From assembly GCA_903925275.1 (NCBI GenBank), contig CAIYES010000233.1, positions 1,547-65,546 on the forward strand: a stretch of 64,000 nucleotides of DNA. Reading direction: 5' to 3'. Below, piece by piece: positions 24,973-58,758 of the stretch. The stretch comes from an uncultured Bacteroidales bacterium (GTDB taxonomy: Bacteria > Bacteroidota > Bacteroidia > Bacteroidales > FEN-979). The position numbers and the translations under genes are program-made. Under the pieces are notes generated by a model, which worked only from the letters and a program-made list of their open reading frames with translations, had not been told where the DNA came from and searched no databases. Each line of letters starts with the position of its first letter. Within the stretch, counting starts at the first letter, position 1.

Positions 24973-25094
24973 AACCAAATGGAAAATACACTGTGGCAAT
25001 AAACGCATTATATGGGAATTGAACTATTCAAAATTGTCGAATGGATCAAGGTTTAATCATTTTTTTCTATCTTGCATAAACAAAAATAACCGAT

Positions 25095-25307
25095 ATGAAA
25101 ACCGATGAATTAATACTCGAAATAAAAAAACTGCCATTGAATGAAAAGCTTAAGATTATTGAAACTACAGCTCATTCGGTCAGGCTTGACGGAGAAAGAA
25201 AACAAAGGGCTGCCGCTGCAAAATCCCGTGCCGGGAATTATGCAACAGATCAGGAATTAACAGCGTTTACCACTTTAGACGGAGCGGCCTTTTATGAAAC
25301 AAGGTGA
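25095..25307 (+). CDS. Putative antitoxin of the downstream MazF-like toxin
   Basis: 70-aa ORF overlapping the toxin gene by 14 nt. The N-terminal helix (ELILEIKKLPLNEKLKIIE) resembles small addiction-module antitoxins; the family is not firmly recognised. Confidence 0.55.
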   Translation: MKTDELILEIKKLPLNEKLKIIETTAHSVRLDGERKQRAAAAKSRAGNYATDQELTAFTTLDGAAFYETR

Positions 25308-25653
25308 AATATGGCTTATCAGTCTTGATCCGGTGGTAGGCGCAGAGATCAACAAGACAAGAACCGCAATTATTATCAATGATGATGCGTTGGGAATTCT
25401 TCCACTGAAGATAATCATCCCGGTTACAGAATGGAAAACCAGGTATGTCAATGCTCCCTGGTTTGTAAAAATCGACTCTTCTGAAAATACCGGATTAACC
25501 AAAGATTCTGCTGCTGATTGTTTTCAAATCCGCTCGGCATTTGATTCACGGCTGATAAAAAAACTGGGAAAAGTAGACCAGGCGTCATTAGAAAAAATTC
25601 AGTATGCATTATCGAAAGTCCTGTCAATACATTTATTCGAAAAATTCGAATAG
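25294..25653 (+). CDS. mazF: PemK/MazF-family type II toxin (endoribonuclease fold)
   Basis: MKQGEIWLISLDPVVGAEINKTRTAIIINDD...PLKIIIPVT...ADCFQIRS matches the PemK/MazF pattern. Confidence 0.8.
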   Translation: MKQGEIWLISLDPVVGAEINKTRTAIIINDDALGILPLKIIIPVTEWKTRYVNAPWFVKIDSSENTGLTKDSAADCFQIRSAFDSRLIKKLGKVDQASLEKIQYALSKVLSIHLFEKFE

Positions 25654-25712
25654 CTCCCATGATCAATTCTTCGTAAAAGAAATCAAGCGCAAATCCCGGG
25701 CACCCGTAAACA

Positions 25713-45092: not shown

Positions 45093-46712
45093 CTATTTAA
45101 TCTCCTCAATTTTCCTGATAATCCGCGACAGCGCTTCGTTAAGCTTTGCTTCAGGTGTGATGATGTTAAACCCTTCCCAGAAAGCATCATTTCCGTTGTA
45201 TGGTTGATCCGAAAATACAATACCGGGCTTCATTAATTCCTGTTTCTGAAATTTCACAACCTCAGAGGTGTCAATGTTACAGGTGGCGAGTTCAAGGAAG
45301 GTATTAAAGTGATCGGACGATAAGTGATGCCTCAGACGCGTTATTACCTCCAGATCACAGCGGGCATGCTGAAGGTAATACCTGCCGTTGAAGGAGGTAT
45401 AGCTGAGGGAATAATTTATCTTTTTGAGTTTAACAATCAGCCGGCTGCTTTTCTTCAGCACAAGGTCTTCAGCCGCAAGATCAAGATAGGCCGGGTTAAT
45501 TTCGAAATCAGCGCCCAGGATGGCAAAACCTTCCTTCTCAATATAAACTGTTCCGGTATACAACGCTTTTTTCAGGTCGGTATTTTGCACAAATGTAATG
45601 GCATAAGCATCCTTTGCATTATAGGATACCAGGTCGGAATATTTATATATGTATTCAACAGGTGGTGTTTGATCAAGGAAACCCGGAATACATTTGACAA
45701 TATCAAGCTGCAGGGCTGATTGAACCCCGGCTTTAAGTTTCAGGAAAACAGTATCGGAGGGATTTGCATTCTGAACTTTTCTCGACTTAAGCAGCTTTAC
45801 CTGGTCGGAATGTTCGCTTACATCATATGGTGATTTATATACCTTAAAAACGGCCTCCGAATAGCTGATAAATTTATTGTTTTTCTGCACCCCTTCGCGA
45901 TAAAACGTTGTAAGATAAGCTGGATCAACGGCATAGTTCTTCTTTCGTTGATCCATTGCTTTCTCGATAATTAAAGTCGGATCAATGTATCGTATAATAA
46001 CTTCCTGGATGGAAATTACCCTGCGGTCGAGGTAGAGGTCAACCTGCTGCTCGTCGAGCAACTGAACCGGAATCTGCTGGCTCATATATCCCAGGTGCGA
46101 AACAACCAAAGAGGTTCCGATCAGAGAATCTGGAATTCTGAGCAAAAAAAAACCATCACTGTTTGTAATGGTGCCAATGTTCTCCTCAACGATTCCAATG
46201 GTAGCAAACGGTATCGCTGTTTTGTTTTCGTTATCGAAAATGTGCCCTTTAATTACAATATATTTGATTACATCCATTCCGGGAACAACCGGTTGTTTCT
46301 TGATTACGGGAAGTGCGTCATTTTTCGTCTGATAAATCAAAATATGTTTACCCAGTACTTTATACGTAAGTCCGGGAGTTGAAAGTATGTTATCGAGCAC
46401 TTTATTCAGCGGCTGATTATCGGCATGCAGTTTAACATGTTTATCGCTTTCAATGGTTTCACTGTTATAAATAAAAAAACAGTCCGCTTTTTGCGATATC
46501 AGGTTTAATGCTTCGTACAGCGTTGTATTTTGTTTGGGGATGCTGATGGTTTTTTCGAGCAGCGGGATCTGACCGAAGGCTGAATTCAGCGAAAACAGTA
46601 AAATGCCTGCACTGAATATACAAGCTTCAAAAAATGAAAGCCCGGGGCTGTATTTGCAAAACTTAATTCTGTCTTGCGCCTTCTTTATTTTCGAAAAATA
46701 CAACTTCGCCAT
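45093..46712 (-). CDS. STN (secretin/TonB N-terminal signalling) + carboxypeptidase-regulatory-like domain protein lacking plug and barrel
   Basis: LYEALNLISQKADCFFIYNSE...NQPLNKVLDNILSTPGLTYKVLGKHILIY is STN-like. IKGHIFDNENKTAIPFATIGI...TNSDGFFLLRI is CarbopepD_reg-like. The C-terminal about 300 aa is paralogous to 48276..49526. The track start overlaps fecR by 50 nt, so the true start is uncertain. Confidence 0.65.
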   Translation of the reverse strand: MAKLYFSKIKKAQDRIKFCKYSPGLSFFEACIFSAGILLFSLNSAFGQIPLLEKTISIPKQNTTLYEALNLISQKADCFFIYNSETIESDKHVKLHADNQPLNKVLDNILSTPGLTYKVLGKHILIYQTKNDALPVIKKQPVVPGMDVIKYIVIKGHIFDNENKTAIPFATIGIVEENIGTITNSDGFFLLRIPDSLIGTSLVVSHLGYMSQQIPVQLLDEQQVDLYLDRRVISIQEVIIRYIDPTLIIEKAMDQRKKNYAVDPAYLTTFYREGVQKNNKFISYSEAVFKVYKSPYDVSEHSDQVKLLKSRKVQNANPSDTVFLKLKAGVQSALQLDIVKCIPGFLDQTPPVEYIYKYSDLVSYNAKDAYAITFVQNTDLKKALYTGTVYIEKEGFAILGADFEINPAYLDLAAEDLVLKKSSRLIVKLKKINYSLSYTSFNGRYYLQHARCDLEVITRLRHHLSSDHFNTFLELATCNIDTSEVVKFQKQELMKPGIVFSDQPYNGNDAFWEGFNIITPEAKLNEALSRIIRKIEEIK

Positions 46713-47694
46713 TGATGGTTTGGCTTTTCAGGTTCAGTGTCATACAAATAAGCTCGGTCATTGTTTCGGCTGTTTCGTTCTGGAAAGTAACGGTAAGCTT
46801 ATGTTTTCCGATTTCATTATCCGATAACACAAAGGTAGTGTTGAAATTCCGATTCAGCACATGAATAATATTCTGAAGTGTTTCATCTTTAAATTGCATG
46901 CGCTGTTTATACCAGGAAGTTGTTTCGTTTGCAATATGCTTTGACTTCACCAGGTTGTTTTCAACGGTTGAAATCTTTTCGCCGGCTACAACCATTTCGC
47001 TTTTAGAAGGATCCGTTTTCAACGTCACTTTCACCTTTCCCCGGTCGACAAAGAGTTCGAAGCCATGACCATTTTTTGTTTTCACATTAAAAGCCGTTCC
47101 CAGAACCTGTATCAGCGCCTCATCAGTTTCAATGATAAAAGGCCTGTCGGGATTGGGTGCAATATCGAAAAAAGCCTCCCCTTTCAGCTCGACATTGCGC
47201 GATCCGGATTTGAATTCCTCCGGAAAAGAGAACAATGAATTTTGAGCGATATAAATAACCGAGCCATCAGCAAGGGTTTTGATAAGGGTGGTAACACCAT
47301 TGCCTGTATTAAGCTGGACCATTTCAACTGCCGGCTTACGGCTCATCATCATATAAAAACCTATACCGGTGCCCACCAGAATCAATATGGCAGCAGCAAT
47401 TTTTAACAGTGCGGGCATTAACCTGATTTTCGAAGCATCCTGCTGTACAGGAATCAAATTCTCCTCCTGAAGGCGACCATGCAGTTTATCCCAGGCTTTG
47501 CCGGTATGGGGAGATTTGGCTGTATGATATCCTTTCATGGCGGACCATTGTTTTTTCAATTTTTCAATCCTGATTTCATCTTCTTCCGAGACGGAAATTT
47601 CTTTTTCAAAAGCGCACGACTCCGTTTCGTTCATTTCACCACTCAGATATCTGGCGAGTTTTTCTGTCTGTTGTTTGTTTCTATCTGTTTTCAT
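46663..47694 (-). CDS. FecR-family anti-sigma factor
   Basis: N-terminal cytoplasmic region, a single TM (ALLKIAAAILILVGTGIGFYMM), a periplasmic FecR domain (VELKGEAFFD...FIIETDEALIQVLGTAFNV), and a 4-nt overlap with the sigma gene. Confidence 0.8.
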   Translation of the reverse strand: MKTDRNKQQTEKLARYLSGEMNETESCAFEKEISVSEEDEIRIEKLKKQWSAMKGYHTAKSPHTGKAWDKLHGRLQEENLIPVQQDASKIRLMPALLKIAAAILILVGTGIGFYMMMSRKPAVEMVQLNTGNGVTTLIKTLADGSVIYIAQNSLFSFPEEFKSGSRNVELKGEAFFDIAPNPDRPFIIETDEALIQVLGTAFNVKTKNGHGFELFVDRGKVKVTLKTDPSKSEMVVAGEKISTVENNLVKSKHIANETTSWYKQRMQFKDETLQNIIHVLNRNFNTTFVLSDNEIGKHKLTVTFQNETAETMTELICMTLNLKSQTINGEVVFFENKEGARQN

Positions 47695-48251
47695 AACGCT
47701 CCTTCTCTGGTATACTCTTTCAACGTTTTTCTGAACAGTTGCAGTGCTTTTCCCATATCGGCCTCAACGGTTTTCACCGAAATGGATAAGATGAGGGCAA
47801 TTTCGCGATATTTCATCCCTTCGAACCGGTTCATTCGGAAAATCCGGGAGCAACGTTCCGGCATTTTCTTGAAAGTTGCGTTTATTAAATTGCCTAAATC
47901 GTTCAACTCTACATCTGTTTGCACATTTACCGGCATCTTATCCTGAGATTCGTTGAAAATATGTTCTGCATAACTTTTCCGAACGGCAAGGTGTTGGAGA
48001 TAATGAAGTGCATTGTTTCTGATTGAATGATACAAATAAGCGTTCAGCGACAACTTCGGACTGAATGATTCCCTGTTTTTCCAAAAATTATAGAAAAACT
48101 CCTGAACTAAATCTTCCGCTGTATCCATATCGTTCAGGAGTTTATCTGCATGATGGCACAAAGGCCCGTAGTATTTGGTAAAAAGCCGTTCAAATTCCCT
48201 GATGTCGCCACCTTGTATTTTCTTCTGTATATATAAATCAGTAAGGTTCAT
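47691..48251 (-). CDS. ECF-type RNA polymerase sigma-70 factor
   Basis: 186 aa. Region 2 (FERLFTKYYGPLCHHA...AEDLVQEFF) and region 4 (RIFRMNRFEGMKYREIALILSISVKTVE). Confidence 0.85.
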   Translation of the reverse strand: MNLTDLYIQKKIQGGDIREFERLFTKYYGPLCHHADKLLNDMDTAEDLVQEFFYNFWKNRESFSPKLSLNAYLYHSIRNNALHYLQHLAVRKSYAEHIFNESQDKMPVNVQTDVELNDLGNLINATFKKMPERCSRIFRMNRFEGMKYREIALILSISVKTVEADMGKALQLFRKTLKEYTREGAL

Positions 48252-48275
48252 AGGGATTTGATAAGCGTTGCGGAT

Positions 48276-49526
48276 CTATTTCTTCTTGCTTTTCGCAAGC
48301 TTTTTTATAGCATTTTCGATGGAATTATCCGGTTCAATGATATTGTATTCACCCCAGAAATCAACATCTGCAAAATCCTGTACTTTCTCTGTAAAAACCA
48401 TGTTCGATTTGAACACATCCTGGTTTGCAAATTTAGCGATATTATTCTCCCGCCTGTCGGTAATGGCTACCTCCGACATAACGGTATAATGATTTTTGAA
48501 CAGTCGTCTCTTCCAGTCACAGGTGAATTTCAGATCAACACGCACATAGTTGAGGAAGTATTTGCCGTTTTGTTCTTTATAGGTTACAAGGTAACTGGTC
48601 GATGTCGGCATAAAGTGCAAGCCCATTGGCTTTTTCTGAATAAAAACGCGCGCAGCCTTGGCTTCATCTTTGAGATCGAGGCTGAATTCAGCGCGGGTTA
48701 TGGCCATATTTTCCTGGGAAATGAATAGCTTCCCAAAATAAAGCGGATCTTCGTTTACAACAATTGGCGAGAAGTTGATTACCCAGTTTATTTTATTTTC
48801 GATATTTACCATCGATCCAAATTCGAACTGATAATTATCAAGGTTATCCAAAGCTATGCTGAGGTCGGTGTTTTTAACAATATCGATCAGCATTGCAACA
48901 TTAGGGCCACCTTGCAACTGAACCATCAGGGTGTCGGCTTTTTTCACATTGGAACCTTTTCGTCCCTTGTAAATTTTCACCTGGTCGTCCTGATTACTTG
49001 AATAAGGCGCCTTATAGATATCAACCACAGCTTCGGCAATTGAAACATAATCGCGACGCTGCCTGATTGACTCACGGTAAAAACCAGTCATCATGTTGGG
49101 TGTTTCACTGAAGTTCTTTCTGATGTTTCTGATTGCCATTTCCACAATTCCGCGTGCATCTCCAGGCACGATGGAAATTTCCTTAAGCTGGATTGGCTGA
49201 AGGTCGAGATAGAATGTTTTATCTTTTCCGACCGCTTCGCTGATTTTAAACTTCGCCGTTGTATAACTTACATGCGATACTTCAAAGTATTCGGCATTAA
49301 GTGATGTGTTCACTTTTAAGGTGAATTCCCCGTCGGAGTTTGAAACTGTCCCAATGCCCGTTTTGGGTACAGAAATAGTGGCATAAACAATTTTGTCACC
49401 GGTTTTGGAATCCTTTAACTGTCCGCTGACAGTGACAAATGAATTTTGTGATAAAGCTGTACCATATACGGCAATAAACAGCAATAATATGCCTGTACGG
49501 ATCAAATTCTTTTTGAATGTTCTCAT
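48276..49526 (-). CDS. Carboxypeptidase-regulatory-like domain protein, paralogue of the C-terminal two thirds of 45093..46712
   Basis: VSGQLKDSKTGDKIVYATISV...SNSDGEFTLKV is CarbopepD_reg-like. The remainder is collinear with the other protein (FYRESIRQRRDYVSIAEAVVDIYKAPY vs FYREGVQKNNKFISYSEAVFKVYKSPY). Confidence 0.65.
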   Translation of the reverse strand: MRTFKKNLIRTGILLLFIAVYGTALSQNSFVTVSGQLKDSKTGDKIVYATISVPKTGIGTVSNSDGEFTLKVNTSLNAEYFEVSHVSYTTAKFKISEAVGKDKTFYLDLQPIQLKEISIVPGDARGIVEMAIRNIRKNFSETPNMMTGFYRESIRQRRDYVSIAEAVVDIYKAPYSSNQDDQVKIYKGRKGSNVKKADTLMVQLQGGPNVAMLIDIVKNTDLSIALDNLDNYQFEFGSMVNIENKINWVINFSPIVVNEDPLYFGKLFISQENMAITRAEFSLDLKDEAKAARVFIQKKPMGLHFMPTSTSYLVTYKEQNGKYFLNYVRVDLKFTCDWKRRLFKNHYTVMSEVAITDRRENNIAKFANQDVFKSNMVFTEKVQDFADVDFWGEYNIIEPDNSIENAIKKLAKSKKK

Positions 49527-49758: not shown

Positions 49759-50478
49759 TCAATCAAAATTTCCATCAATATATTCCTGGAACTTTTCTCT
49801 GTATTGATCGCTTACAGGGATATATACCTTACCGTCGAAAACAATTCTGTTCCGTTCTATCACTGAAATCCTTTTAAGATTTACGATGAATGACCGGTGA
49901 ACCCTCATAAACCGGCCGGAAGGAAGTTGTTCTTCGATCGTCTTCATGCTCATCTGCGTCATCACGGGGGCACTGTTGATCAAATGAATCTTGATATACT
50001 CGTGCTGGCTCTCAATGTACTTTATGTCATCCAGTTCGATTCGGATGAGTTTGTATTCTGATTTTACGAACAAATGGCTGGCTGTAGTCTTGACGCTTTC
50101 CTTCAGGCTGTTAGCCTTTAAATCTATCAGACTTTTCACCTTGTTGGCCGCTTTCAGGAAATTGTTGTAGGTGATGGGTTTTAATAAATAGTCTGTGGCA
50201 TCTACCTGGAACCCTTCCACGGCATATTCGCTGTAGGCGGTAGTAAATACGATATAGGGTTTGTCGGTCAGTGATTTTACAAATTCCAATCCGTTCAGGT
50301 CGGGCATATTGATATCAATGAATATGAGCTGTATCGCACGGTTGTTGATAATTTCCATTGCCTCGAATGCACTCCGGCACTCGGCCACCAGTTCCAGAAA
50401 TGGGGTTTTCTGAATATATGCTGATATTTTTTTTACTGCCAGGGGTTCATCGTCAATGGCGATGCAGGAAATCTTCAT
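49759..50478 (-). CDS. LytTR-family response regulator
   Basis: Receiver domain (CIAIDDEPLA...IFIDINMPDLNG) plus a LytTR DNA-binding domain (IKYIESQHEYIKIH...FMRVHRSFIVNL). Confidence 0.9.
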   Translation of the reverse strand: MKISCIAIDDEPLAVKKISAYIQKTPFLELVAECRSAFEAMEIINNRAIQLIFIDINMPDLNGLEFVKSLTDKPYIVFTTAYSEYAVEGFQVDATDYLLKPITYNNFLKAANKVKSLIDLKANSLKESVKTTASHLFVKSEYKLIRIELDDIKYIESQHEYIKIHLINSAPVMTQMSMKTIEEQLPSGRFMRVHRSFIVNLKRISVIERNRIVFDGKVYIPVSDQYREKFQEYIDGNFD

Positions 50479-51551
50479 ATTGGAATTTTAAGGTCAACTT
50501 CAAATTCACTTTCTTTATCCTGAATGTTCAACTGGAAATTATCCTCATATAATAACTTTAAACTCTCTTTTATGTTATCAAGACCGATTCCTGAATATTC
50601 GCCCTGGTAATTTGCTGCAATTTTATGCTTGCTGTTTTTAATAATACACGTCAGGAAAGCGCTGTCAATCCGGAGTTCAAAATAAATATACGATTTCTGC
50701 GGATAACTCACACCATGCTTAAAAGCATTTTCAAGCAACGAAATAAAAAGCATCGGGGGTATTTTTGTATCAGGAACCTTTTCAGGAATCACAACAGTAA
50801 CTTCCACCTCATCGGAATGCCTGAGTTGCATCAGTGAAATAAAACTGTTGATGAATTCGATCTCCTTTTTCAATTCGATGGTGTTTTGAGCCGAATCATA
50901 AAGCAGGTACCGCATAAGTGTTGAAAGCCGTACGACAGCATCCTGGGCCTTTTCCGAATCTATTTCAATAAGTGAATGTATGTTATTCAGGGTGTTCATA
51001 AAAAAATGGGGACTTACCTGGTGCCTCAGTAAAGCGAGGTTGGTTTTAAGTTGCTCCTTCTCTGCATCCTTTCTAAGACTCTCTTCACTCAACCATTTCG
51101 CCATTAGTCTGATCGTGGTACCGGCACCAACGATTAAAATGCAAATGATGAGATTGTCCGCAAAAACCATGAAGGGCGGTTTTGAATTTGGGGAATTCAG
51201 GTCAGGCTGTCTGAACCCGTCGGGTGAAAAATCAGTACCGGGATCAGCAAATGAAAAAAATCCCGGACGGGCAATCATATTGATCGCTATCCCCATGATT
51301 ATCAATAAAGAAACCGACACAAAGTAGTACAGGTATCTCTTTTTCAGTAGTAAACGCGGCACCAGAATATAAACATTCACCAGGAAAATAATGAGAAACC
51401 CGGAAAGGTTTACCCAATGTCCTGCCATGGTATTCCAATTAAGATGTCCGGAGCCGCGTTCGCTGAAATAGGGTACCGAGAAAACGAGCGCCCATATTAA
51501 AACGTAGAACAAAACTTCAATTTTCCTGCTGCTTGGCAAATGTGCTTTCAT
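50475..51551 (-). CDS. LytS/YehU-type sensor histidine kinase
   Basis: An N-terminal multi-TM region, then the His_kinase signature LRHQVSPHFFMNTLNNIHSLI and an HATPase region. There is a 4-nt overlap with the regulator gene. Confidence 0.85.
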   Translation of the reverse strand: MKAHLPSSRKIEVLFYVLIWALVFSVPYFSERGSGHLNWNTMAGHWVNLSGFLIIFLVNVYILVPRLLLKKRYLYYFVSVSLLIIMGIAINMIARPGFFSFADPGTDFSPDGFRQPDLNSPNSKPPFMVFADNLIICILIVGAGTTIRLMAKWLSEESLRKDAEKEQLKTNLALLRHQVSPHFFMNTLNNIHSLIEIDSEKAQDAVVRLSTLMRYLLYDSAQNTIELKKEIEFINSFISLMQLRHSDEVEVTVVIPEKVPDTKIPPMLFISLLENAFKHGVSYPQKSYIYFELRIDSAFLTCIIKNSKHKIAANYQGEYSGIGLDNIKESLKLLYEDNFQLNIQDKESEFEVDLKIPI

Positions 51552-51574
51552 TTCACAAAGTTATTTAATTTATC

Positions 51575-51629
51575 CACCTCATCCCCTGCGCCCCTTCTCC
51601 TTAAGGAGAAGGGGACGGGGGTTGAGGTA
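51575..51629. repeat. GC-rich nested palindrome (REP-like); probable terminator between the TBDT and kinase genes
   Basis: Perfect hairpin CCCCTTCTCC-TTAA-GGAGAAGGGG at 51591-51614, nested in an imperfect outer stem CACCTCATCCCC.../...GGGGGTTGAGGTA. Confidence 0.75.
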
Positions 51630-51648
51630 GCATGATGGTTCATCATTT

Positions 51649-54006
51649 CTAAAATTGTATTTTATAAATAAAGTTCGGAAAAAACCCCAGTTGGTATGTC
51701 GTACTAATAGACCTGCTTCTGTCATCGTAACTCTGTGAGAATACGTTGTTATTGTTCGTGACATTTTGCAAGTCAATGGAAAACGATTGAGACAGTTTTT
51801 TCATCGGGCTGTTCAGGGTAAATCCTACCTTAAAATCCAACCTGAAATAATCCGGATATGTGCTTGAATAGGCATATTCATCACCTTTCAGCACCTCCCT
51901 GCCTCTGACCTGGGACGCCGCTAAATCTATCGGGGTATAATATCGTCCGCCGGCATACGTAACTTTGATGTCCGTTGTGATGGCATTCCTTTTTTCCTTG
52001 CCAAGCTTCCACTCTTTCCCTGCCAGGAAGTTGGCCACATATCTCCCGTTAAATGCCGTGTTCCGCTCTATTCCGTCACTGGCGGTGTATTTTGACTGGT
52101 AAAGCGAAGCAGTAAATAAGCCATAGTACCCCCTGCTGAAGAACTTCTCAACAGTTAGTTCAACGCCGTAGTTTCTGCCGGTGCCGGTGTTTGTCAGGCT
52201 GTCTTCAAGGTCGGTTTTAAAACTTGCCCCGGTATTCAGCATGGAGTAACTGCTGGGGTAAGTATTGACAGGCACATTCACGAGATACTGATAATAGGCT
52301 TCAATTTTCAAACGCCAGTCTTTGAAGGGTTGCACATCATATCCCAGGACAAAATGATGGCTTTTGGTAAAACCCAGCTCCAGGTTATCATAATTATATG
52401 AACCATCTGGATTGGGCGTCTGTAAAAAATAGACATTCAACGGTTGGGTTTGCGAATGCAACCCATAGCCAAAGCTGAAGCTGTTCTTATTATTCAACTC
52501 GTACTTTAACCCGATCCGGGGTTCAAGGGAGAATGAATTATTCAGGAAGAACTGCTGGGCATGGAGGCCTGCATTCAGCGTGAGTTTTTCGGTGATGTTG
52601 TATTTAAGATGAGCATAAACCTGGGCCAGCGTGGTGTAGCTGTTGTAATCCCAGATTTGGATCCATCCTTCACCTTCCCGCCTTCTGTTCCTGTTGTACA
52701 GGTACAGATTCATATATTCTGCCTGCATTCCGGCTTTAAAAAACAGCCTGGAATTGATTTTCAGATTGTAGTTGGTAATGAATTCATAACCTGTTCTGGC
52801 AACCTTATTTTCCTCTTTGCTGTATGAATTCCTTAATGAATCCAACCCGTAGTTCAACTGGTTATTCCCCGAATAATTGATGCCGATCGTAGAACTGATG
52901 AAAGATTTACTGTTGATCTGCTTGAAGTGTTTCAGTCCCCCGATGGCTATCTTACTCTTGAAATCTGTTTGTTGTCCACCGCCATATAATTCATTCGAAC
53001 TACCTCCTTCTATTGCAATGCTACTGGCAGCCAGGATGCCAAACAGGGTGAACCTGCCAAGTTTTGTATCCCCGCTGTTTATTTTGAATGAAAGATCCTG
53101 GTAGGTGGGCGTAGAAGTAGTGCCTATGTTTATTCCCATGGCCTGGGCAATACCGGCAAGCGAATAACGGTAACCAATTAAATACGATGAACCGTTCGAT
53201 TTGCTGATGGGCCCCTCCGTCATGGCCTCAATTCCGGTTGTTACCCCAAGCTGGACAGTGGTTTCCCGTTTTTGTGTATTCCCGTTTCTGAAGCCGATGT
53301 CGAAAACTCCGGAAATCGCATTGCCATATTCTGCCGGCCAGGCTGAGGTGAAGAAATCGGAGCTCTTCAGCATATTGGTGTTCAGTGCGCTCACTGCACC
53401 GCCTGTGGTGCCTACCGATGCAAAATGGTTGGGATTGGTTGCATCCATGCCATCGATGCGCCACAACACCCCAACAGGAGAATTACCGCGGATCACAATG
53501 TCATTTCTGCTGTCGTCGGTGGCGCTTACGCCGGCAAAATTCGCAGCCAGCCGTGCCGGATCGCTTCGCCCTCCGGCAAACCGGTTCACCTCTTCCATGG
53601 AGAATGTGCGGCCGCTGATGGTTGATAAACTGTTGATGGTTTTGTCTTTACTGTTAGCCGTAACAACGACTTCATTCAGGGACTTAATATCCTCCTCCAT
53701 CGCAATGTCAAGGATTGTCTCTTTCCCTGAAGTCACCACGACGCTGGATACAAATACATCCTTGTAGCCGACAAAGGAGAATTTCAACTCATACCTGCCT
53801 GGCAACACATCGGGAATAACATAAATCCCCTTTTCATTGGTTACCGCTCCCCTTTTATCGGCTTCATTCATTATTTGAACAGTGGCGCCAGGAAGAGTTG
53901 TTTGAGAAAGCTTATCAATAACCACACCTCTTATTTTCTGCCTGTTATTCTGAGCATAAGATAAATGAGCTATTATCAGTAAAATAATCAAAAAGTATCT
54001 TTTCAT
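51649..54006 (-). CDS. TonB-dependent receptor with carboxypeptidase-regulatory-like N-terminal domain
   Basis: IRGVVIDKLSQTTLPGATVQI...NEKGIYVI is CarbopepD_reg-like. Plug motifs are NEVVVTA, DPARLAANFAGV, IRGNSP and YGNAISGVFDI. Terminal aromatic residue. Confidence 0.85.
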   Translation of the reverse strand: MKRYFLIILLIIAHLSYAQNNRQKIRGVVIDKLSQTTLPGATVQIMNEADKRGAVTNEKGIYVIPDVLPGRYELKFSFVGYKDVFVSSVVVTSGKETILDIAMEEDIKSLNEVVVTANSKDKTINSLSTISGRTFSMEEVNRFAGGRSDPARLAANFAGVSATDDSRNDIVIRGNSPVGVLWRIDGMDATNPNHFASVGTTGGAVSALNTNMLKSSDFFTSAWPAEYGNAISGVFDIGFRNGNTQKRETTVQLGVTTGIEAMTEGPISKSNGSSYLIGYRYSLAGIAQAMGINIGTTSTPTYQDLSFKINSGDTKLGRFTLFGILAASSIAIEGGSSNELYGGGQQTDFKSKIAIGGLKHFKQINSKSFISSTIGINYSGNNQLNYGLDSLRNSYSKEENKVARTGYEFITNYNLKINSRLFFKAGMQAEYMNLYLYNRNRRREGEGWIQIWDYNSYTTLAQVYAHLKYNITEKLTLNAGLHAQQFFLNNSFSLEPRIGLKYELNNKNSFSFGYGLHSQTQPLNVYFLQTPNPDGSYNYDNLELGFTKSHHFVLGYDVQPFKDWRLKIEAYYQYLVNVPVNTYPSSYSMLNTGASFKTDLEDSLTNTGTGRNYGVELTVEKFFSRGYYGLFTASLYQSKYTASDGIERNTAFNGRYVANFLAGKEWKLGKEKRNAITTDIKVTYAGGRYYTPIDLAASQVRGREVLKGDEYAYSSTYPDYFRLDFKVGFTLNSPMKKLSQSFSIDLQNVTNNNNVFSQSYDDRSRSISTTYQLGFFPNFIYKIQF

Positions 54007-54012
54007 TATTTT

Positions 54013-55248
54013 TTAGTTGATATTTCTTACTAGACGTACAAAGTTTAAAACCCTTTCTTCTCCCTGGCCTGTTCCTGCTGTCTTCTTGTCGAAACGCACT
54101 GCACCGGCGCCGTGCAGGTCTTCACCATTTCCGTCTTCCGCCCTGCCAAAAGCGACATACCATGCAGATGGATAAGCTCCGTTTGCTATAGAAATAGCCG
54201 AGGTACTTGTCCAATAGTAGGGATAGTCAGCCTTTCCTCCATCGTTTAGAATACCGGTACAACTGAATAGTGCATTTATTGCGGGTCCTACATTGGCTGC
54301 GTTTGTTGCACCAGGCGAGCGTGTGTAATCCACAAGACTTTGAAGTTCTTTTGTATTCGGTAACCGCCAATCGTCGTGCCCCAGGTAATTTGCGTTATTC
54401 TGCGTTTGAGCATAAGCCAGTGCGTGTTCCCAATCCATACCCGAACCGTTGTCGGTCTGTTGCCACATGAGGCCGGTAGCCAAATCAGAAATGGTTCCGT
54501 CGCCGTTGTTCTGGAATAAATTGACGCCATACGCAAGATTGCCACGCACACAACGAACAAAGTGCATTGGCCCTTCAGCAATACTGTAAGCTTTTATATG
54601 TCCGGTGCCAAAATTCACACCAAAGGCAAGTTCTGCGTCAGGCGTATTCCCACTGATATTGCCCATTACTCCGGTGTATTTGTCACTGCTCCAGAATATC
54701 GCATGACTGAGGTCTTGTTCATCTGTATATTTAATGTCAAAATATTCTGTATCTATATAAGGCCAGCCGACACTTACATTCCATAAAGAGTATAGCTCCT
54801 TGATGGTAGGCACCCGCCAATCGTTGTAACCGCCATAGTTTTGATTGTTCAGATTGTCAACCTCAGTTTGAGTTTCGGCCCAGTAATACATACCACCGAA
54901 AGTTGGTTTTTCATAGCTTTTCTGCCATGTTAAACCAGTAACTTCATCTTTTACAGTAAGTCCATCGCTGCTTTTGGTGTAAACGGGAGTTATATGTTCA
55001 AACTGGGAATCCTGTCCGTAAAATGCTGCACCGAAACCAGGGGTGATAATGTTTCCTGCACTGTCCCAGCATTTGGTCTGACTTGTACCGACAACCGGGA
55101 AACAGCCTGCATAGGCCGGTTCACGCGGAACTACCTGCAAATCTCCGCTAACGGTTGTTTTATCTTTTTTACACCCGCAGGAGGTGAAAATAATTCCGGA
55201 GATCATGATCATGGTTGTAAAACCGGGAAACGATTTCGATTTTTTCAT
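54013..55248 (-). CDS. Lipoprotein with two DUF1566 (Lcl C-terminal-like) domains
   Basis: Lipobox FTSC. Duplicated signatures GYNDWRVPTIKELYSL and GHDDWRLPNTKELQSLVDYTR. Confidence 0.75.
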   Translation of the reverse strand: MKKSKSFPGFTTMIMISGIIFTSCGCKKDKTTVSGDLQVVPREPAYAGCFPVVGTSQTKCWDSAGNIITPGFGAAFYGQDSQFEHITPVYTKSSDGLTVKDEVTGLTWQKSYEKPTFGGMYYWAETQTEVDNLNNQNYGGYNDWRVPTIKELYSLWNVSVGWPYIDTEYFDIKYTDEQDLSHAIFWSSDKYTGVMGNISGNTPDAELAFGVNFGTGHIKAYSIAEGPMHFVRCVRGNLAYGVNLFQNNGDGTISDLATGLMWQQTDNGSGMDWEHALAYAQTQNNANYLGHDDWRLPNTKELQSLVDYTRSPGATNAANVGPAINALFSCTGILNDGGKADYPYYWTSTSAISIANGAYPSAWYVAFGRAEDGNGEDLHGAGAVRFDKKTAGTGQGEERVLNFVRLVRNIN

Positions 55249-55274
55249 TGCTGAATTTTTTATTTATTGTGGAG

Positions 55275-55357
55275 CAAAAGTATTGTGCAGGAAATCTTTC
55301 AAGAAATGGAATCGCCAGATAGTAGGGTTGTGTCACCCTTTCGAGGTTTTTTATCAC
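55275..55357 (-). promoter_or_regulatory. Candidate promoter: TACTTTTG -7 box plus three TC(A/G)C cores phased at 21 bp
   Basis: Plus-strand CAAAAGTA at 55275-55282. Cores at 55312, 55333 and 55354. Same layout as 58035-58116. Confidence 0.55.
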
Positions 55358-55426
55358 TGAATGGTTTTGGGAAATGGATGCCTTTCGAAAATAACAGGCA
55401 ACACGGAAGAATTCCAGACGCTGTAT

Positions 55427-56404
55427 TTACTCTTTAGGCAAAAGCATGATACTCCCTGCTTCAATTTTCAGAGCTTTGCCTTTCATCTTGATGAAGACAT
55501 TGATCGAACTCAGATTTGTAACCAGGGTTTTGTCTGCTGAAAATTTGAGATTTTTAAAGGCATTGATATAATCCACTAATCCTATTTGTGTTGTGTAGTA
55601 TATATCCGGATTTTTGGAAACCATCTTGAAAAACTTTTCTACTTCTGCCCATTTGTTTCCAGTTCCTTCATATTCCCAACTATGTCCCCACACATAAAAC
55701 AGGGCCAATGAATTCGCTTTAAGAAAATCAGTGGTAAGCTGATAAAATTGTGCTAATTCTCTTCTGTCATTTGCAGTGTCATTGGGTATATAATTTGTTT
55801 TTCCGAATAAATGAATGGTAGGTTGCCATCTAAGAAAATCAGTTGGCATACTAAAATTGTATGTATCACCTACTGTTCTGGCATATTCAATACCTAAACC
55901 GGTTATTGCCTCAACTACAAAATCGTTGGTATTGCCAAATGGATACGACATTCCACGAACGGGATAGCCCATCAATCGTTCCAATTCTTTTCTATCTTCC
56001 ACCACTTCATAAATCACGTCAATTTTCGACAAAGAGGTCAGACTTGGGTGATTTGCCGTATGGCCGGAAACTTCGTGGCCTTTGTATAGGTTTTTAACCT
56101 CTTCTTTGGTGAGATAATCTTTTGTTCCGAGTTTGTTGGAATTAAGATGAAAAGTCCCGATAAGACCATACTCATTCATCAATTTCACCAAATGCCTGTC
56201 GGCTTCATTTCCATCATCATAACTCAAAATCAAAGCTTTGGATTTACCCTGTGGGAAAAGCATTTCTACTGGAATACTGCTCTTTTCGAGAGCAGTATTG
56301 GTTTGAGCATTTGCGGAATTGATAACAGTAATCAATGCGAGGATAACAATAATTAATTTTGATTCGCTTCTCATCTTATAATAATTTGATTTCAGAGGTC
56401 GCAT
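55427..56404 (-). CDS. Polysaccharide deacetylase (NodB homology / CE4)
   Basis: LILSYDDGN (motif 1) and GHTANHPSL (motif 2). Signal peptide; the start may instead be the second Met (56374). Confidence 0.8.
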   Translation of the reverse strand: MRPLKSNYYKMRSESKLIIVILALITVINSANAQTNTALEKSSIPVEMLFPQGKSKALILSYDDGNEADRHLVKLMNEYGLIGTFHLNSNKLGTKDYLTKEEVKNLYKGHEVSGHTANHPSLTSLSKIDVIYEVVEDRKELERLMGYPVRGMSYPFGNTNDFVVEAITGLGIEYARTVGDTYNFSMPTDFLRWQPTIHLFGKTNYIPNDTANDRRELAQFYQLTTDFLKANSLALFYVWGHSWEYEGTGNKWAEVEKFFKMVSKNPDIYYTTQIGLVDYINAFKNLKFSADKTLVTNLSSINVFIKMKGKALKIEAGSIMLLPKE

Positions 56405-56456
56405 GAAATTTTCATTTTAAAATGGTGGTTTTTAATCAACCGGTTCCAACGAAAGC

Positions 56457-58007
56457 CTATTCTTTTATTAACTTTTTAACTTCAAAAGTGTTTCCGTATT
56501 GAAGTTTTACTAAATAAACCCCGGTTGCAAGGTTATTGGTCTGTATCATGATTTTGTCAGCTAAACTGCCTTTGTGCACGATCTGACCGATGGAATTTAA
56601 AAGCTCAAAGTTTGCCATTCCCCTGTTTCCTTTCATTTCAATTGTAAGTTCGCCAGTTGCAGGATTTGGATAAATGTTAAACATATTGAAGTCTTTATTT
56701 TCATTTATTCCGGTTGAAGATCCATTTCTTACCAAACGCACATAATTGTATATCCTGACGGCATCGCCCTGAGGAGCATTGGGATTGTAATATCCATTTC
56801 CATTATGCGTGTATCCCGCAAAGCTTCTTGGTTTCGGATCGCTTCGCTGACATCCGGCGCCATGTATATCAATCCACCCACCAAAAGGGGGCATATAGCC
56901 CATAGCTCTTCCGAAGCAAACATAGGTGGCGCTTGCTCCGTTTGTCTGCGCTTGCGAAGAAAAAGTAGTGTTGCTCCAATACCAGGGATAATCTGCTACA
57001 CCTCCTTCATTGGTAATCTGGGTGCAGTTGAACATCGGGTTTATGGCTGCAGAACTGCTTGTTGCCGGAGAACGGGTATAGTCAACGATACTTTGCAACT
57101 CCTTGGTATCGGGTAATCGCCAATCCGAATATCCTGCATAGATAAAAGCTTCAGCATAACTCAATGCGTCCTTCCATAAAACGCCTGTCCCGTTATCGTT
57201 TTGCATCCACATCAGCCCGGTAGCATTATCAGTAATGGTTCCGTTCCCGTTGTCAACGAATTGATTTGTCCCATAGGTAGTATTGCCGCGAACATACAAT
57301 ACATAGAAATGCTTTGATTGTCCGTCTTCCGGAACAGGGGAAGTGGTTGGATATCCTTTAATACGTCCATCAATAAAATTGAACCCGAACAAAGTTTCCT
57401 GCCCATTCATGGTTGTGCTTACATATTTCGTAGCGGATGCAATTTGACCATCAATAATCCTTTCAGTTCCAAGGTCGCCGTGTGCCAGTGAGTTTACATC
57501 ACCGAAACCGACAGAGAAATATGTCGTATCAATATATTTTATACAAGTAGACGGTGGTGGGCCTGGTTCTGCTCCAAAAAACATGGCAATGGAATATAAC
57601 TCTTTAATAGCAGGTAAACGCCAATCATGATAACCTGCCGTGCTACATGTTGCAGCGCTATCCACTGCCTCATAATACTTCAGTTTATCATAGAAATTAA
57701 TTGCTCCATCACCGTTTCTGTCCTCGGTTTGCTGCCACATCAGCCCGGTTAAATTGTCGGTTACTGTGCCATCACCATTGTTGGTATAAGATCGCATGTT
57801 TCCGGGATGATTCGAATTCTGTCCGTAGAATGCCTGCCCCGGAGTGGGCATTGTTATTGCAACCGTTGTGTCGTAAGATATTGTCTGACCTGTTCCGACA
57901 ATTGGATAAGTATTGGTTTGGCTATATCCAATAATATTTATCATTGTCACAATGCAAAAGGTTGCAATAACATTGACTGTGAAGGATTTGTTTGATAATT
58001 TTTTCAT
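56457..58007 (-). CDS. Secreted protein with two DUF1566 domains and a T9SS C-terminal sorting domain
   Basis: GYHDWRLPAIKELYSI and GYSDWRLPDTKELQSIVDYTR. C-terminal NIYPNPATGELTIEM...GVYLVKLQYGNTFEVKKLIKE. Confidence 0.75.
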   Translation of the reverse strand: MKKLSNKSFTVNVIATFCIVTMINIIGYSQTNTYPIVGTGQTISYDTTVAITMPTPGQAFYGQNSNHPGNMRSYTNNGDGTVTDNLTGLMWQQTEDRNGDGAINFYDKLKYYEAVDSAATCSTAGYHDWRLPAIKELYSIAMFFGAEPGPPPSTCIKYIDTTYFSVGFGDVNSLAHGDLGTERIIDGQIASATKYVSTTMNGQETLFGFNFIDGRIKGYPTTSPVPEDGQSKHFYVLYVRGNTTYGTNQFVDNGNGTITDNATGLMWMQNDNGTGVLWKDALSYAEAFIYAGYSDWRLPDTKELQSIVDYTRSPATSSSAAINPMFNCTQITNEGGVADYPWYWSNTTFSSQAQTNGASATYVCFGRAMGYMPPFGGWIDIHGAGCQRSDPKPRSFAGYTHNGNGYYNPNAPQGDAVRIYNYVRLVRNGSSTGINENKDFNMFNIYPNPATGELTIEMKGNRGMANFELLNSIGQIVHKGSLADKIMIQTNNLATGVYLVKLQYGNTFEVKKLIKE

Positions 58008-58034
58008 GGCTAAACTTTTTACTTATTAAGAAAG

Positions 58035-58116
58035 CAAAGGTACAGCGCAGGAAATCATTTAAAAAAGCAATCACCATAAACCTTGGATAAATCACCCAAT
58101 AGTGGTTTTTTGTCAC
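58035..58116 (-). promoter_or_regulatory. Candidate promoter: TACCTTTG -7 box plus three TCAC cores phased at 21 bp
   Basis: Plus-strand CAAAGGTA at 58035-58042. TCAC at 58071, 58092 and 58113. About 100 nt is collinear with 55275-55357. Confidence 0.55.
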
Positions 58117-58266
58117 TGAATGATTTTGCAATACTGGTGATAACCTGTTGTAATCGGTGATTATCTGCGTTTCCACTTAGCGGTATACGAGTTATCCGGG
58201 TGCCAACAAGGTAATTCCAATGTGATTTCACCTCATCAATAATGAGTTTGGTCTAAAAAACCAAAA

Positions 58267-58344
58267 TCACCTCACCCTGACCCTCTCCTAAAGGAGAGGG
58301 AATTCCCCTTCTCCTGAGGGAGAAGGGGTTAGGGGTTGAGGTCA
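58267..58344. repeat. GC-rich double-hairpin palindromic element (REP-like)
   Basis: CCCTCTCC-TAAA-GGAGAGGG at 58281-58300 and CCCCTTCTCC-TGAG-GGAGAAGGGG at 58305-58328, inside outer arms TCACCTCACCCTGA / TTAGGGGTTGAGGTCA. The second stem is identical to the one at 51591. Confidence 0.8.
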
Positions 58345-58478
58345 ATTGAATTTTTTTCATTCATTACGAATCATACTGTTTTTATACTGCACTCAATAAT
58401 GATTTCTGACTATTTATTGTTATTTTTGACGAATTAAAAACCCTGAATAATCTACATATTACAAACATTTTCAATGCG

Positions 58479-58677
58479 GTCCGGTAAAACTTTATGTTAC
58501 TTTCCAAAATCCCTGTCAATATTGCGTCCCTACGGGACTTAACATCGAATGGGTCATTTCTTGATCTACCGATATTTTGTCCCTGACAGGACAGTCCCGT
58601 AGGGACAAGATATTGGTAGAAAGCAAGTTGAAGAACAATAGACAGTCCCGTAGGGACGGTATAAAATTTAACCGGAC
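58479..58677. mobile_element. 199-bp hairpin-rich element with imperfect 17-bp terminal inverted repeats (MITE-like)
   Basis: GTCCGGTAAAACTTTAT at 58479-58495 matches the reverse complement of 58661-58677 at 15 of 17 positions. GTCCC-loop-GGGAC hairpins lie at 58526, 58594 and 58645. A 19-bp long-range stem pairs 58566-58584 with 58601-58619. Confidence 0.6.
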
Positions 58678-58758
58678 AATAATGATGCGTTTTATGCTGA
58701 GAATCAGCAGATAAAGAAAGTGAAATTTTTTAAAATTCCTAAACTAAAATCAAAAAAG

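Follow-up and report, generated by a model that had tools for sequence, protein, structure and literature searches.

Six genes on the minus strand of a DNA stretch from an uncultured Bacteroidales bacterium (assembly GCA_903925275.1, contig CAIYES010000233.1) appear, as judged by comparison with related genomes, to make up a conserved, self-contained cassette that occupies differing genomic places. They code for two paralogous Lcl_C (DUF1566) proteins, referred to below as type A and type B, a TonB-dependent transporter, a CE4 deacetylase, a LytS-type sensor kinase and a LytTR response regulator; the whole stretch analysed, 64,000 nucleotides long, is termed the window. We consider it rather probable that these genes constitute an uptake module of this design. 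That they form a self-contained, mobile system which captures a molecule and brings it through the outer membrane is a reading for which we find the balance about even, and an acetylated glycan is put forward as its cargo only tentatively.

The original prediction had placed six genes between positions 49759 and 58007 of the window, and the list of open reading frames (ORFs) together with Pfam and NCBIfam scans confirmed all of them, with coordinates exactly as given there and with the domains described (Table 1). The stop of the type-A gene lies 6 nt before the transporter start, and 52 nt separate the type-B gene, which encodes a protein with a sorting domain of the type IX secretion system (T9SS), from the CE4 gene. 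None of the six proteins matched any PADLOC defence-protein model, and an anti-phage defence system was therefore rejected as an explanation of the cassette.

Table 1. Features of the cassette and its surroundings (window coordinates).
Feature	Position	Strand	Description
Promoter/operator of unit 1	58035..58122	-	Three direct repeats, 21-nt period, and -7 box; read from sequence
Type-B surface protein (predicted)	56457..58007	-	516 aa; signal peptide, N-terminal element, two Lcl_C, T9SS type-A C-terminal sorting domain
CE4 (NodB-fold) deacetylase	55427..56404	-	325 aa; PF01522 E 1.3e-19; signal-peptidase-I signal
Promoter/operator of unit 2	55275..55363	-	Repeats and -7 box; read from sequence
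Type-A surface lipoprotein (predicted)	54013..55248	-	411 aa; lipobox, K-K-D signal, N-terminal element, two Lcl_C
TonB-dependent transporter (predicted)	51649..54006	-	785 aa; signal peptide, CarboxypepD_reg-like N-terminal extension, Plug, barrel
REP-like extragenic palindrome	51552..51648	no strand	Between transporter and kinase genes; stem about 51570-51630
Sensor histidine kinase	50475..51551	-	PF06580 His_kinase and GHKL ATPase; four predicted membrane helices
Response regulator	49759..50478	-	REC and LytTR; 4-nt overlap with kinase gene
Second, composite REP-like palindrome copy	58268..58361	no strand	5' of unit-1 promoter

The conservation of the gene set was examined by scanning one genome per GTDB species with type A as anchor, which gave 80 loci, all from metagenome-assembled genomes (MAGs). 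Partner genes were counted in those Bacteroidota and Ignavibacteriota loci (66 other species) that extended far enough to be informative; the loci are phylogenetically related, and the counts are thus not independent of each other. The transporter was present in 29 of 34 informative loci, the kinase and the regulator each in 24 of 25, the CE4 gene in 11 of 21 and the T9SS-type paralogue, type B, in 10 of 21. When ORFs were clustered all against all, only five families (Lcl, transporter, kinase, regulator and CE4) turned up in more than eight loci. Among 124 flanking proteins surveyed with Pfam, CotH, extracytoplasmic function (ECF) sigma factors and unrelated T9SS cargo came up four times each, and no recurrent glycoside hydrolase, metal, vitamin or phosphate genes were found in this census of neighbours. 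A second scan, of metagenomes and anchored on the transporter, placed an Lcl gene (A or B) directly upstream of it in 16 of the 17 loci with enough upstream sequence, with kinase and regulator genes following, and across loci the gap between transporter and Lcl gene ranged from 6 to 20 nt. Carriers belong to Bacteroidales, Saprospiraceae, Chitinophagaceae, Flavobacteriaceae and Ignavibacteriota, and their gene orders and flanks differ. Because the same five families recur next to unrelated flanking genes, the six genes are predicted to form a self-contained cassette. The earlier view of them as a functional unit is thereby upheld, the set recurring in dozens of species with unrelated flanks. 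Failure to co-occur beyond this genome had been named beforehand as the outcome that would speak against it, and co-occurrence was found.

Pfam scans identified two Lcl_C stretches in type A (E 7.2e-52) as well as in type B (PF07603, E 1.3e-38); the profile scores, 175 and 132 bits against a cut-off of 34.9, place both proteins in this family. The two types are 41% identical across the whole two-domain unit and share a conserved N-terminal element, VGT.QT...FYGQ (VGTGQT...FYGQN in type B). The Pfam scan showed Lcl_C alone in type A and hence no SusD-family domain, and neither type contains collagen repeats, the domains being arranged in tandem. Both proteins are predicted to be made for the cell surface. 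In type A, the lipobox cysteine had originally been assigned to position 24 (FTSC), but it is Cys26 (SCG-C-KKD) that is invariant among 20 aligned orthologues. Most Bacteroidota copies continue with CKKD(D/K)T, and the K-K-D-D following the lipobox presumably corresponds to the surface-export signal of Bacteroidota lipoproteins; with its lipobox cysteine and a subsequent K-(D/E)2-type signal, type A is a putative surface lipoprotein. Copies from other phyla carry a lipobox or a membrane anchor. Type B combines an N-terminal signal peptide with a T9SS type-A sorting domain at residues 445-516 (PF18962 E 4.8e-13, TIGR04183 E 3.6e-12), as is typical of type-A T9SS cargo, and further T9SS cargo genes are present within the window. 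Its orthologues, 47-91% identical, possess either the T9SS domain (about 515 aa) or a lipobox without it (about 430-460 aa).

More than 7000 homologues of type A were found at E<1e-10, and the best 120 clusters were 75-91% identical to it. The statement that DUF1566 has no established function is outdated, as one member is characterised as glycosaminoglycan-binding: Pfam has renamed the family Lcl_C after the Legionella collagen-like protein, whose C-terminal domain is C-type-lectin-like and binds sulphated glycosaminoglycans (PMC11162425). The characterised Lcl_C proteins, Legionella Lcl (PMC11162425) and Leptospira Lsa25 (PMC8638851), are adhesins, and the literature describes further DUF1566 members as Leptospira adhesins and as targets of diversity-generating retroelements. 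Types A and B do not appear to be such targets, since reverse transcriptase was absent among the recurrent neighbours and the proteins are conserved to their ends, type A right to its last residues in the aligned orthologues.

An AlphaFold model of the Lcl_C unit built on 85 type-A and type-B sequences reached a moderate predicted local distance difference test (pLDDT) value of 65.8 and a predicted template-modelling score of 0.72; with 20 close orthologues alone, pLDDT was 31.8. The top match of the 85-sequence model in the Protein Data Bank (Foldseek) was the C-terminal domain (CTD) of Legionella Lcl, 8q4e, with a probability of 0.98 and an E-value of 0.04, followed by snake-venom C-type-lectin-like heterodimers and intimin at non-significant E-values. 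Sequence and profile searches of the same database with the lipoprotein and the transporter gave nothing meaningful. The model thus supports a ligand-binding fold for the Lcl_C unit and nothing more specific.

The two-domain unit is not confined to the cassette: 921 representative clusters were obtained at E<=1e-30 and 19,920 at E<=0.001, and proteins as long as 5900 aa frequently contain it, at 45-52% identity. Among 60 larger proteins sampled, the fusion partners were PKD (12), arylsulfotransferase (8), Ig (6), dockerin (5), metallophosphoesterase (2), sulfatase (1) and a chitobiase C-terminal domain (1). The unit thus resembles a portable module for binding outside the cell, one that is combined with enzymes. 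More distant contexts were also observed. Two plasmids of Fulvitalea axinellae (L117:7059-9326, L116:8016-10561) carry the two-Lcl_C unit: on one of them a metallo-beta-lactamase-fold domain and an EF-hand are joined to it, and on the other it lies 5 nt upstream of a sulfatase whose C-terminus resembles N-sulphoglucosamine sulphohydrolase. In Vibrio sp. THAF191d (L115:5713-10407, NZ_CP046066.1), an energy-coupling factor (ECF) transporter comprising a RibU-type S component, a fused EcfA and EcfT is followed by a 492-aa two-Lcl_C protein with a C-terminal EF-hand. An RsgA-type GTPase gene lies near Lcl genes both in this Vibrio and in Cloacimonadales (L002).

It is also evident that types A and B act as a pair. 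In the original prediction the two paralogues headed twin operons; that they lead independent pathways is contradicted by their adjacency in many phyla and by 14 fusions between them. In the 14 loci from other phyla (including Cloacimonadota, Chloroflexota, Clostridia, Hydrogenedentes, Spirochaetota, Myxococcota, Verrucomicrobiota and Desulfuromonadales), type A is 59-76% identical and the transporter is absent, and type B adjoins type A in 7 of them. Moreover, all 14 homologues of 780-880 aa consist of one A-like and one B-like half, in the order A-B in 3 and B-A in 11, and the fusions look independent of each other. Fusion in both orders is a classic sign of two proteins acting together. It is conceivable, and here our confidence stays somewhat below the halfway mark, that the pair represents a new kind of heterodimeric device for capture outside the cell which moves between phyla as a unit and which, in Bacteroidota and Ignavibacteriota, has been wired to its own transporter and LytS/LytTR switch. 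In the Cloacimonadales chromosome OY759316.1 (L002/L041:6396-7868) the type-B gene is split into ORFs of 166 and 286 aa with the T9SS sorting domain kept, and is probably a frameshifted pseudogene or an assembly error.

The Plug match of the transporter was marginal (24.1 bits against a cut-off of 23.9, E 5.3e-5). Its orthologues carry precomputed PF00593 barrel matches, the plug is very strongly conserved among 35 of them, a TonB-box-like LNEVVVTA follows the N-terminal extension at residues 110-117, and the last residue is F. With plug, barrel and TonB box, the protein is predicted to be a TonB-dependent transporter. The SusC/RagA signature (TIGR04056) was not found in its 785 residues, for which NCBIfam gave only a weak BamP N-terminal match. 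The earlier suggestion that the lipoprotein is the surface partner of this transporter is a reasonable reading, to which the conserved lipobox and the K-K-D-D signal add; it is stated here as a prediction.

The solved structures nearest to the CE4 protein, with E-values of 2e-9 to 3e-4, are those of fungal chitin deacetylases and of peptidoglycan deacetylases. The motifs SYDDG, HTANH, SYPFG and GHSWE are conserved in 22 orthologues, although motif 3, SYPFG, is without the usual Arg at the canonical position; the Asp-Asp pair, the His-x-x-x-His metal motif and the catalytic His identify the protein as a putative CE4/NodB deacetylase. It had been described as secreted, but it has a signal-peptidase-I signal and neither a lipobox nor a T9SS domain, and in a Bacteroidota cell it is for this reason predicted to be periplasmic. 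A periplasmic enzyme would act after import. The proposed sequence of capture, deacetylation and import consequently changes to capture, import and deacetylation, the last step being optional in view of the presence of CE4 in only about half of the informative loci. The position of the gene also shifts, from between B and A in the window to between A and the transporter in Saprospiraceae and others.

With a PF06580 core and a GHKL domain in the kinase, and REC and LytTR domains in the regulator, the last two genes encode a LytS/LytTR two-component system. The Pfam scan did not find the 5TMR-LYT sensor domain in the kinase, which is accordingly not LytS proper. Conservation profiles of 29 orthologues showed two short, poorly conserved outer loops, with values of 0.47 for loop 1 and 0.28 for loop 2 compared to 0.89 for the kinase core. 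The regulator is BtsR-like (E 1.6e-43) and falls below the equivalog cut-offs of both BtsR and LytR.

The two Lcl genes are preceded by duplicated sequence of 130 nt (55239-55369 and 57998-58128), and the 19-mer CATTCAGTGAYAAAAAACC occurs within the window at the unit-1 promoter and at 55345-55363 only. Unit 1 has the repeats GTGAC (58116-58112), GTGAT (58095-58091) and GTGAT (58074-58070) and a -7 box TAccTTTG (58042-58035); unit 2 has GTGAT (55357-55353), GTGAC (55336-55332) and a degenerate GCGAT (55315-55311), with TActTTTG at 55282-55275. In both promoters the TAnnTTTG box, which we take to be the Bacteroidota -7 element, lies about 30 nt downstream of the repeats. Short direct repeats with a 21-nt period are a hallmark of LytTR operators such as the AgrA, ComE and PlnC sites. 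In the other Bacteroidota and Ignavibacteriota loci, the spacing of GTGAY pairs before Lcl genes had sharp peaks at 21 nt, with 41 pairs, and at 42 nt, with 11. Such a paired motif preceded 31 of 80 Lcl genes, compared to 0 of 48 transporter, 0 of 42 kinase, 0 of 35 regulator, 0 of 23 CE4 and 4 of 394 other genes, and none of 23 Lcl genes in phyla without the regulator. With a position matrix, 47 of the 62 top-scoring sites fell before Lcl genes, spread over 39 loci, a result that is partly circular because the matrix was derived from the loci it scored. The motif accompanied an orthologous regulator in 20 of 24 loci and a non-orthologous LytS/LytTR pair in none of 5 (p = 0.001, a value that ignores kinship). 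We therefore regard the three GTGAY repeats spaced 21 nt apart as a candidate LytTR operator that tracks regulator orthology. Given the duplicated promoter, the shared repeats and this tracking, what had been called twin operons is most likely one regulon of the cassette's own regulator, and the co-regulation anticipated for the two units is substantiated at the level of a candidate.

Kinase and regulator had also been described as a separate third unit behind a REP (repetitive extragenic palindromic) hairpin. This separation did not hold up, as both genes are near-constant members of the set and in close relatives follow the transporter after 25 nt. As a rule the regulator genes are part of the transporter operon, and the circuit therefore probably activates itself. 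The hairpin itself folds at -47.4 kcal/mol (z = -7.5), and its core has one further copy in the window, at 58305-58328, where 0 are expected by chance, so that REP-like is a fair term for it; because close relatives lack it and have the 25-nt gap instead, it represents a lineage-specific insertion. The four structural genes, for type B, CE4, type A and the transporter, thus lie between the two REP-like copies.

The genes of the cassette do not fully share one history. When the window was compared with distant carriers, synonymous divergence (dS) of the transporter, kinase and regulator was saturated although the proteins were still 67-82% identical, which indicates old divergence under strong purifying selection, and the ratio of non-synonymous to synonymous divergence (dN/dS) was about 0.05-0.15. 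In the same genome pairs, type A and CE4 showed lower synonymous divergence, with a proportion of synonymous differences (pS) of about 0.45-0.6. When the CE4 gene (window 55427-56404) was compared with those of L008, L010, L018, L028 and L068, it proved to be 85% identical (pS about 0.45) to copies in distant cassettes and 70% identical (pS about 0.72) to those of the closest relatives, whereas the transporter showed the opposite pattern. This indicates that the parts differ to some extent in their past, as would be expected if cassettes had exchanged modules. The mosaic histories, the variable flanks and matches across phyla together mark the cassette as horizontally mobile, as far as such comparisons can tell.

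Binning artefacts are an unlikely source of the cross-phylum matches, as one carrier is a complete 4.38-Mb Cloacimonadales chromosome with Lcl genes, and copies binned to Clostridia/Eubacteriales have a hydrophobic stretch or an ordinary signal peptide in place of a lipobox. No recurrent association with a transposase, integrase or phage was found in the flanking census and an IMG/VR search. Carriage on phages was rejected, the IMG/VR search giving one remote match of 23%, and on plasmids there were only homologues of about 40% identity, in Persicobacter, Fulvitalea, Vibrio and Photobacterium. The Fulvitalea locus, in which Lcl_C and sulfatase genes are followed about 1.2 kb on by a transporter gene, was suggestive, but this transporter is not orthologous to that of the window and was rejected as its counterpart; it may belong with a CobW/DUF2927 cluster. 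High-identity copies occur in MAGs of many phyla, by their names mostly from freshwater lakes and sludge, and the cassette thus probably targets a resource that matters in these habitats.

Other genes were seen in or beside the cassette. A polytopic membrane protein of about 505 aa, without a Pfam match, is encoded between transporter and kinase in three Bacteroidota cassettes and also adjoins Lcl genes in two MAGs, one of a spirochaete and one of Opitutae (L014:15898-17379, L029:17319-18836, L078:4828-6357, L074:14527-16161 and L083:3263-4846); it could be an inner-membrane partner of the system. Secreted proteins of the CotH kinase family are encoded in or next to four cassettes (L013:8623-9981, L022:8020-9378, L038:14694-16049 and L069:947-2323), and another CotH protein (L111:1851-4454) belongs to a VTC, DUF4956 and phosphate-porin cluster that adjoins an A/B fusion protein. 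PhoU and PHO4 genes flank a Saprospiraceae cassette (L001). These neighbours give a weak hint of a link to phosphorus. Phosphate acquisition, considered on account of the PhoU/PHO4 genes and the VTC cluster, is kept as a minor lead, as the 124 flanking proteins held no recurrent phosphate family.

Taken together, the genes suggest the following mechanism. The A/B pair would bind a ligand outside the cell and pass it to the dedicated TonB-dependent transporter, which is encoded 6 nt downstream of type A. Where CE4 is present, this periplasmic enzyme would strip acetyl groups from the imported molecule. The LytS-type kinase and LytTR regulator would switch on both Lcl promoters through the three GTGAY repeats with 21-nt spacing, just upstream of the Bacteroidota -33/-7 promoter, and the location of their genes in the transporter operon of most relatives would render the circuit self-reinforcing. 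The weakest step of this mechanism is the nature of the cargo. An N-acetylated amino-sugar glycan or oligosaccharide is a plausible candidate for the most likely class, since CE4 is the sole recurrent enzyme, an Lcl_C domain binds glycosaminoglycans and related units pair with a sulfatase; chitin or peptidoglycan fragments, named earlier as examples, stay conjectural.

Several observations weigh against capture and import of a glycan. The cassette contains neither a glycoside hydrolase nor an inner-membrane transporter, unlike glycan utilisation loci, and CE4 is missing from about half of the loci. Five Bacteroidota loci (L054, L059, L064, L024 and L025) have Lcl, kinase and regulator genes without a transporter, and the core function of the A/B pair needs no transporter, since the pair exists without one in other phyla. 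Lectins that recognise variable glycans seldom keep 75-90% identity across orders, and the extreme conservation of A and B is easier to reconcile with a chemically fixed ligand or an extensive protein interface. No conserved periplasmic loop with which to sense an imported product was found in the conservation profile of the 29 kinase orthologues. The kinship of the counted loci and the partial circularity of the position matrix, pointed out above, should also be borne in mind.

The conservation of the binders (75-91% identity within Bacteroidota, 59-76% across phyla) would be accommodated if the same machinery handled a small and chemically invariant cargo, such as a cofactor or vitamin, a metal chelate or a sulphated or phosphorylated organic compound, with A and B acting in the manner of a hemophore or BtuG. 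We judge this main alternative improbable. The order of lipoprotein and then transporter is that of hmuY and hmuR, the Vibrio sp. THAF191d protein directly follows an ECF transporter of vitamin type, and arylsulfotransferase is fused to the unit in 8 of the 60 sampled proteins. In V. parahaemolyticus, two DUF1566 proteins and a TonB-dependent receptor make up a cluster that is given in a table of the Fur regulon (PMC12341060). Two loci (L001, L111) have phosphate-related neighbours, and four have CotH. Against such a cargo, the sole recurrent enzyme of the cassette belongs to a family that acts on acetylated sugars, control appears to be by LytS/LytTR with no sign of Fur, Zur, Pho or riboswitch-type regulation, and genes for metals, vitamins or phosphate were not enriched in the neighbour census; only about 40% identity to type A, moreover, is seen in the proteins of Vibrio and Fulvitalea, and their contexts are single observations.

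Two other roles are less likely than a small fixed cargo. The genes might specify a regulated surface coat or adhesion module, in which the LytTR system turns on two lectin-like adhesins for binding to other cells, particles or algae, CE4 works on peptidoglycan or exopolysaccharide of the cell itself and the transporter is a co-regulated passenger or an anchor. This has some appeal, as many phyla and some Bacteroidota loci have A and B with no transporter beside them, display domains (PKD, Ig and dockerin) are joined to the unit, and peptidoglycan deacetylases are among the nearest CE4 structures; the periplasmic or secreted CE4 enzymes PgdA, PgaB and IcaB act on the cell's own polymers. The characterised Lcl_C proteins, too, are adhesins (PMC11162425, PMC8638851). 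The tight coupling of Lcl and transporter genes (gaps of 6-20 nt, within translational range; 29 of 34 and 16 of 17 loci) nevertheless makes an adhesion module distinctly unlikely, as do a plug and TonB-box-like motif that are under strong purifying selection and would be needless in an anchor; adhesins, in addition, usually diversify, whereas A and B are highly conserved. Still less probable is a device for trans-envelope sensing, in which the Lcl pair and transporter report the ligand to the kinase, perhaps through the transporter's N-terminal domain in the periplasm, much as TonB-dependent transducers signal to anti-sigma factors, and uptake is secondary. Kinase and regulator are indeed the most constant partners (24 of 25) and are kept when the transporter is absent, a replaced regulator pair is again LytS/LytTR (L020, L024, L025, L028 and L036), the lack of a conserved periplasmic loop makes a protein-protein or membrane-borne input to the kinase conceivable, and the cassette has no catabolic or inner-membrane transport gene. 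The transporter, however, has a CarboxypepD_reg-type extension rather than an STN signalling domain, loci with the kinase and no transporter speak against an obligatory relay, and we know of no precedent for a TonB-dependent transporter that signals to a histidine kinase. That the genes are neighbours by chance or through shared ancestry of close genomes, with no functional link, can practically be dismissed: related genomes do share gene order, which calls for general caution, but here the five families are found across distant groups in varying order and between differing flanks, CE4 changes position and the gene histories are mosaic.

Some features elsewhere in the window deserve mention. 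The palindromic motif GTCCCTACGGGAC, distinct from the REP-like CCCTTCTCC/GGAGAAGGGG element, occurs three times in alternating orientation within about 150 nt (58517-58663), in the long intergenic region between the cassette and a divergent OmpA-family gene at 58720. The region 45093-49526 contains an ECF sigma factor gene (47691-48251) and a gene for a FecR-like anti-sigma factor (46663-47694), which is followed by that of a 539-aa protein (45093-46712) with STN and CarboxypepD_reg domains and no Plug or barrel match; a 416-aa CarboxypepD_reg protein that looks paralogous to it is encoded before the sigma factor gene (48276-49526). The 539-aa protein is an unusual partner, as a FecR/ECF pair normally serves a full TonB-dependent transducer. 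A stretch of lower GC content (23374-28340), encoding a DNA methylase (N6_N4_Mtase) and a helicase resembling the res subunit of type III restriction enzymes, is probably a restriction-modification island.

Uptake by TonB-dependent transporters with surface lipoproteins is the central strategy of nutrient acquisition in Bacteroidota, of which few partner families are understood, namely SusD/RagB, BtuG, HmuY and XusB. No paper describing the present gene set was found in the full-text literature searched, and the cassette is apparently undescribed. It would add a widespread and strongly conserved family of partners to those known, and it gives the Lcl_C/DUF1566 family a concrete and testable context; with the candidate operator and the A/B fusions at hand, both regulation and complex formation are directly testable. 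If A and B do form a heterodimeric capture device wired to its own transporter and LytS/LytTR switch, they would constitute a new class of surface partners for transporters, alongside the SusD, BtuG and HmuY types, and the cassette would be, to judge from the literature searched, the first transporter regulon under a LytTR regulator with a defined 21-nt-repeat operator.

Like the SusC/SusD and RagA/RagB systems, the cassette combines a TonB-dependent transporter that has a CarboxypepD_reg-like extension with an adjoining surface lipoprotein, a dedicated sensor-regulator and, in some cases, a carbohydrate-active enzyme (CE4). It differs from them in that its lipoprotein has an unrelated fold with two C-type-lectin-like domains and no SusD Pfam match, its transporter is about 200 residues shorter and without the SusC/RagA signature, its genes stand in reverse order, it lacks a glycoside hydrolase and a second paralogue leaves by T9SS. 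SusC/SusD loci are controlled by hybrid two-component systems, SusR or ECF sigma factors, and the regulator of the cassette is of the LytS/LytTR kind. Having the lipoprotein gene first is not unusual, since hmuY precedes hmuR in Porphyromonas. HmuY-HmuR (haem, Porphyromonas) and BtuG-BtuB (vitamin B12, Bacteroides) are systems in which a non-SusD lipoprotein captures the ligand for a dedicated transporter, and, with the lipoprotein gene first as in hmuYR, a distal or released binder could feed a cell-bound one. Sequence and fold are unrelated in this case, the two paralogous and sometimes fused binders are particular to the cassette, and neither system has a counterpart of CE4 or of LytS/LytTR.

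For the binders themselves the closest relation is the Legionella pneumophila Lcl-CTD (8q4e), which belongs to the same family, is the best structural match and is extracellular, with Lcl binding a carbohydrate polymer. Lcl is a collagen-like trimer with one Lcl_C domain, secreted by the type II system and serving as a host adhesin, whereas A and B have two tandem domains, a conserved N-terminal element, no collagen repeats and a link to a transporter. The regulatory part shares the PF06580 core, REC and LytTR domains, repeats of 21-nt period and likely autoregulation with LytS/LytR, BtsS/BtsR and AgrA/ComE; in contrast to LytS-type systems, its sensor has four helices and no 5TMR-LYT domain, and its targets are genes for lectin-like surface proteins and a TonB-dependent transporter instead of holin-like, pyruvate-transporter or pheromone genes. 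By pure analogy with chitin oligosaccharide deacetylase signalling in Vibrio, where the sensor family is different, the CE4 product could feed the sensor. With no SusD domain, SusC/RagA signature or glycoside hydrolases and with another family of regulators, the cassette belongs to none of the SusCD, BtuBG and HmuYR systems, although it would function like them.

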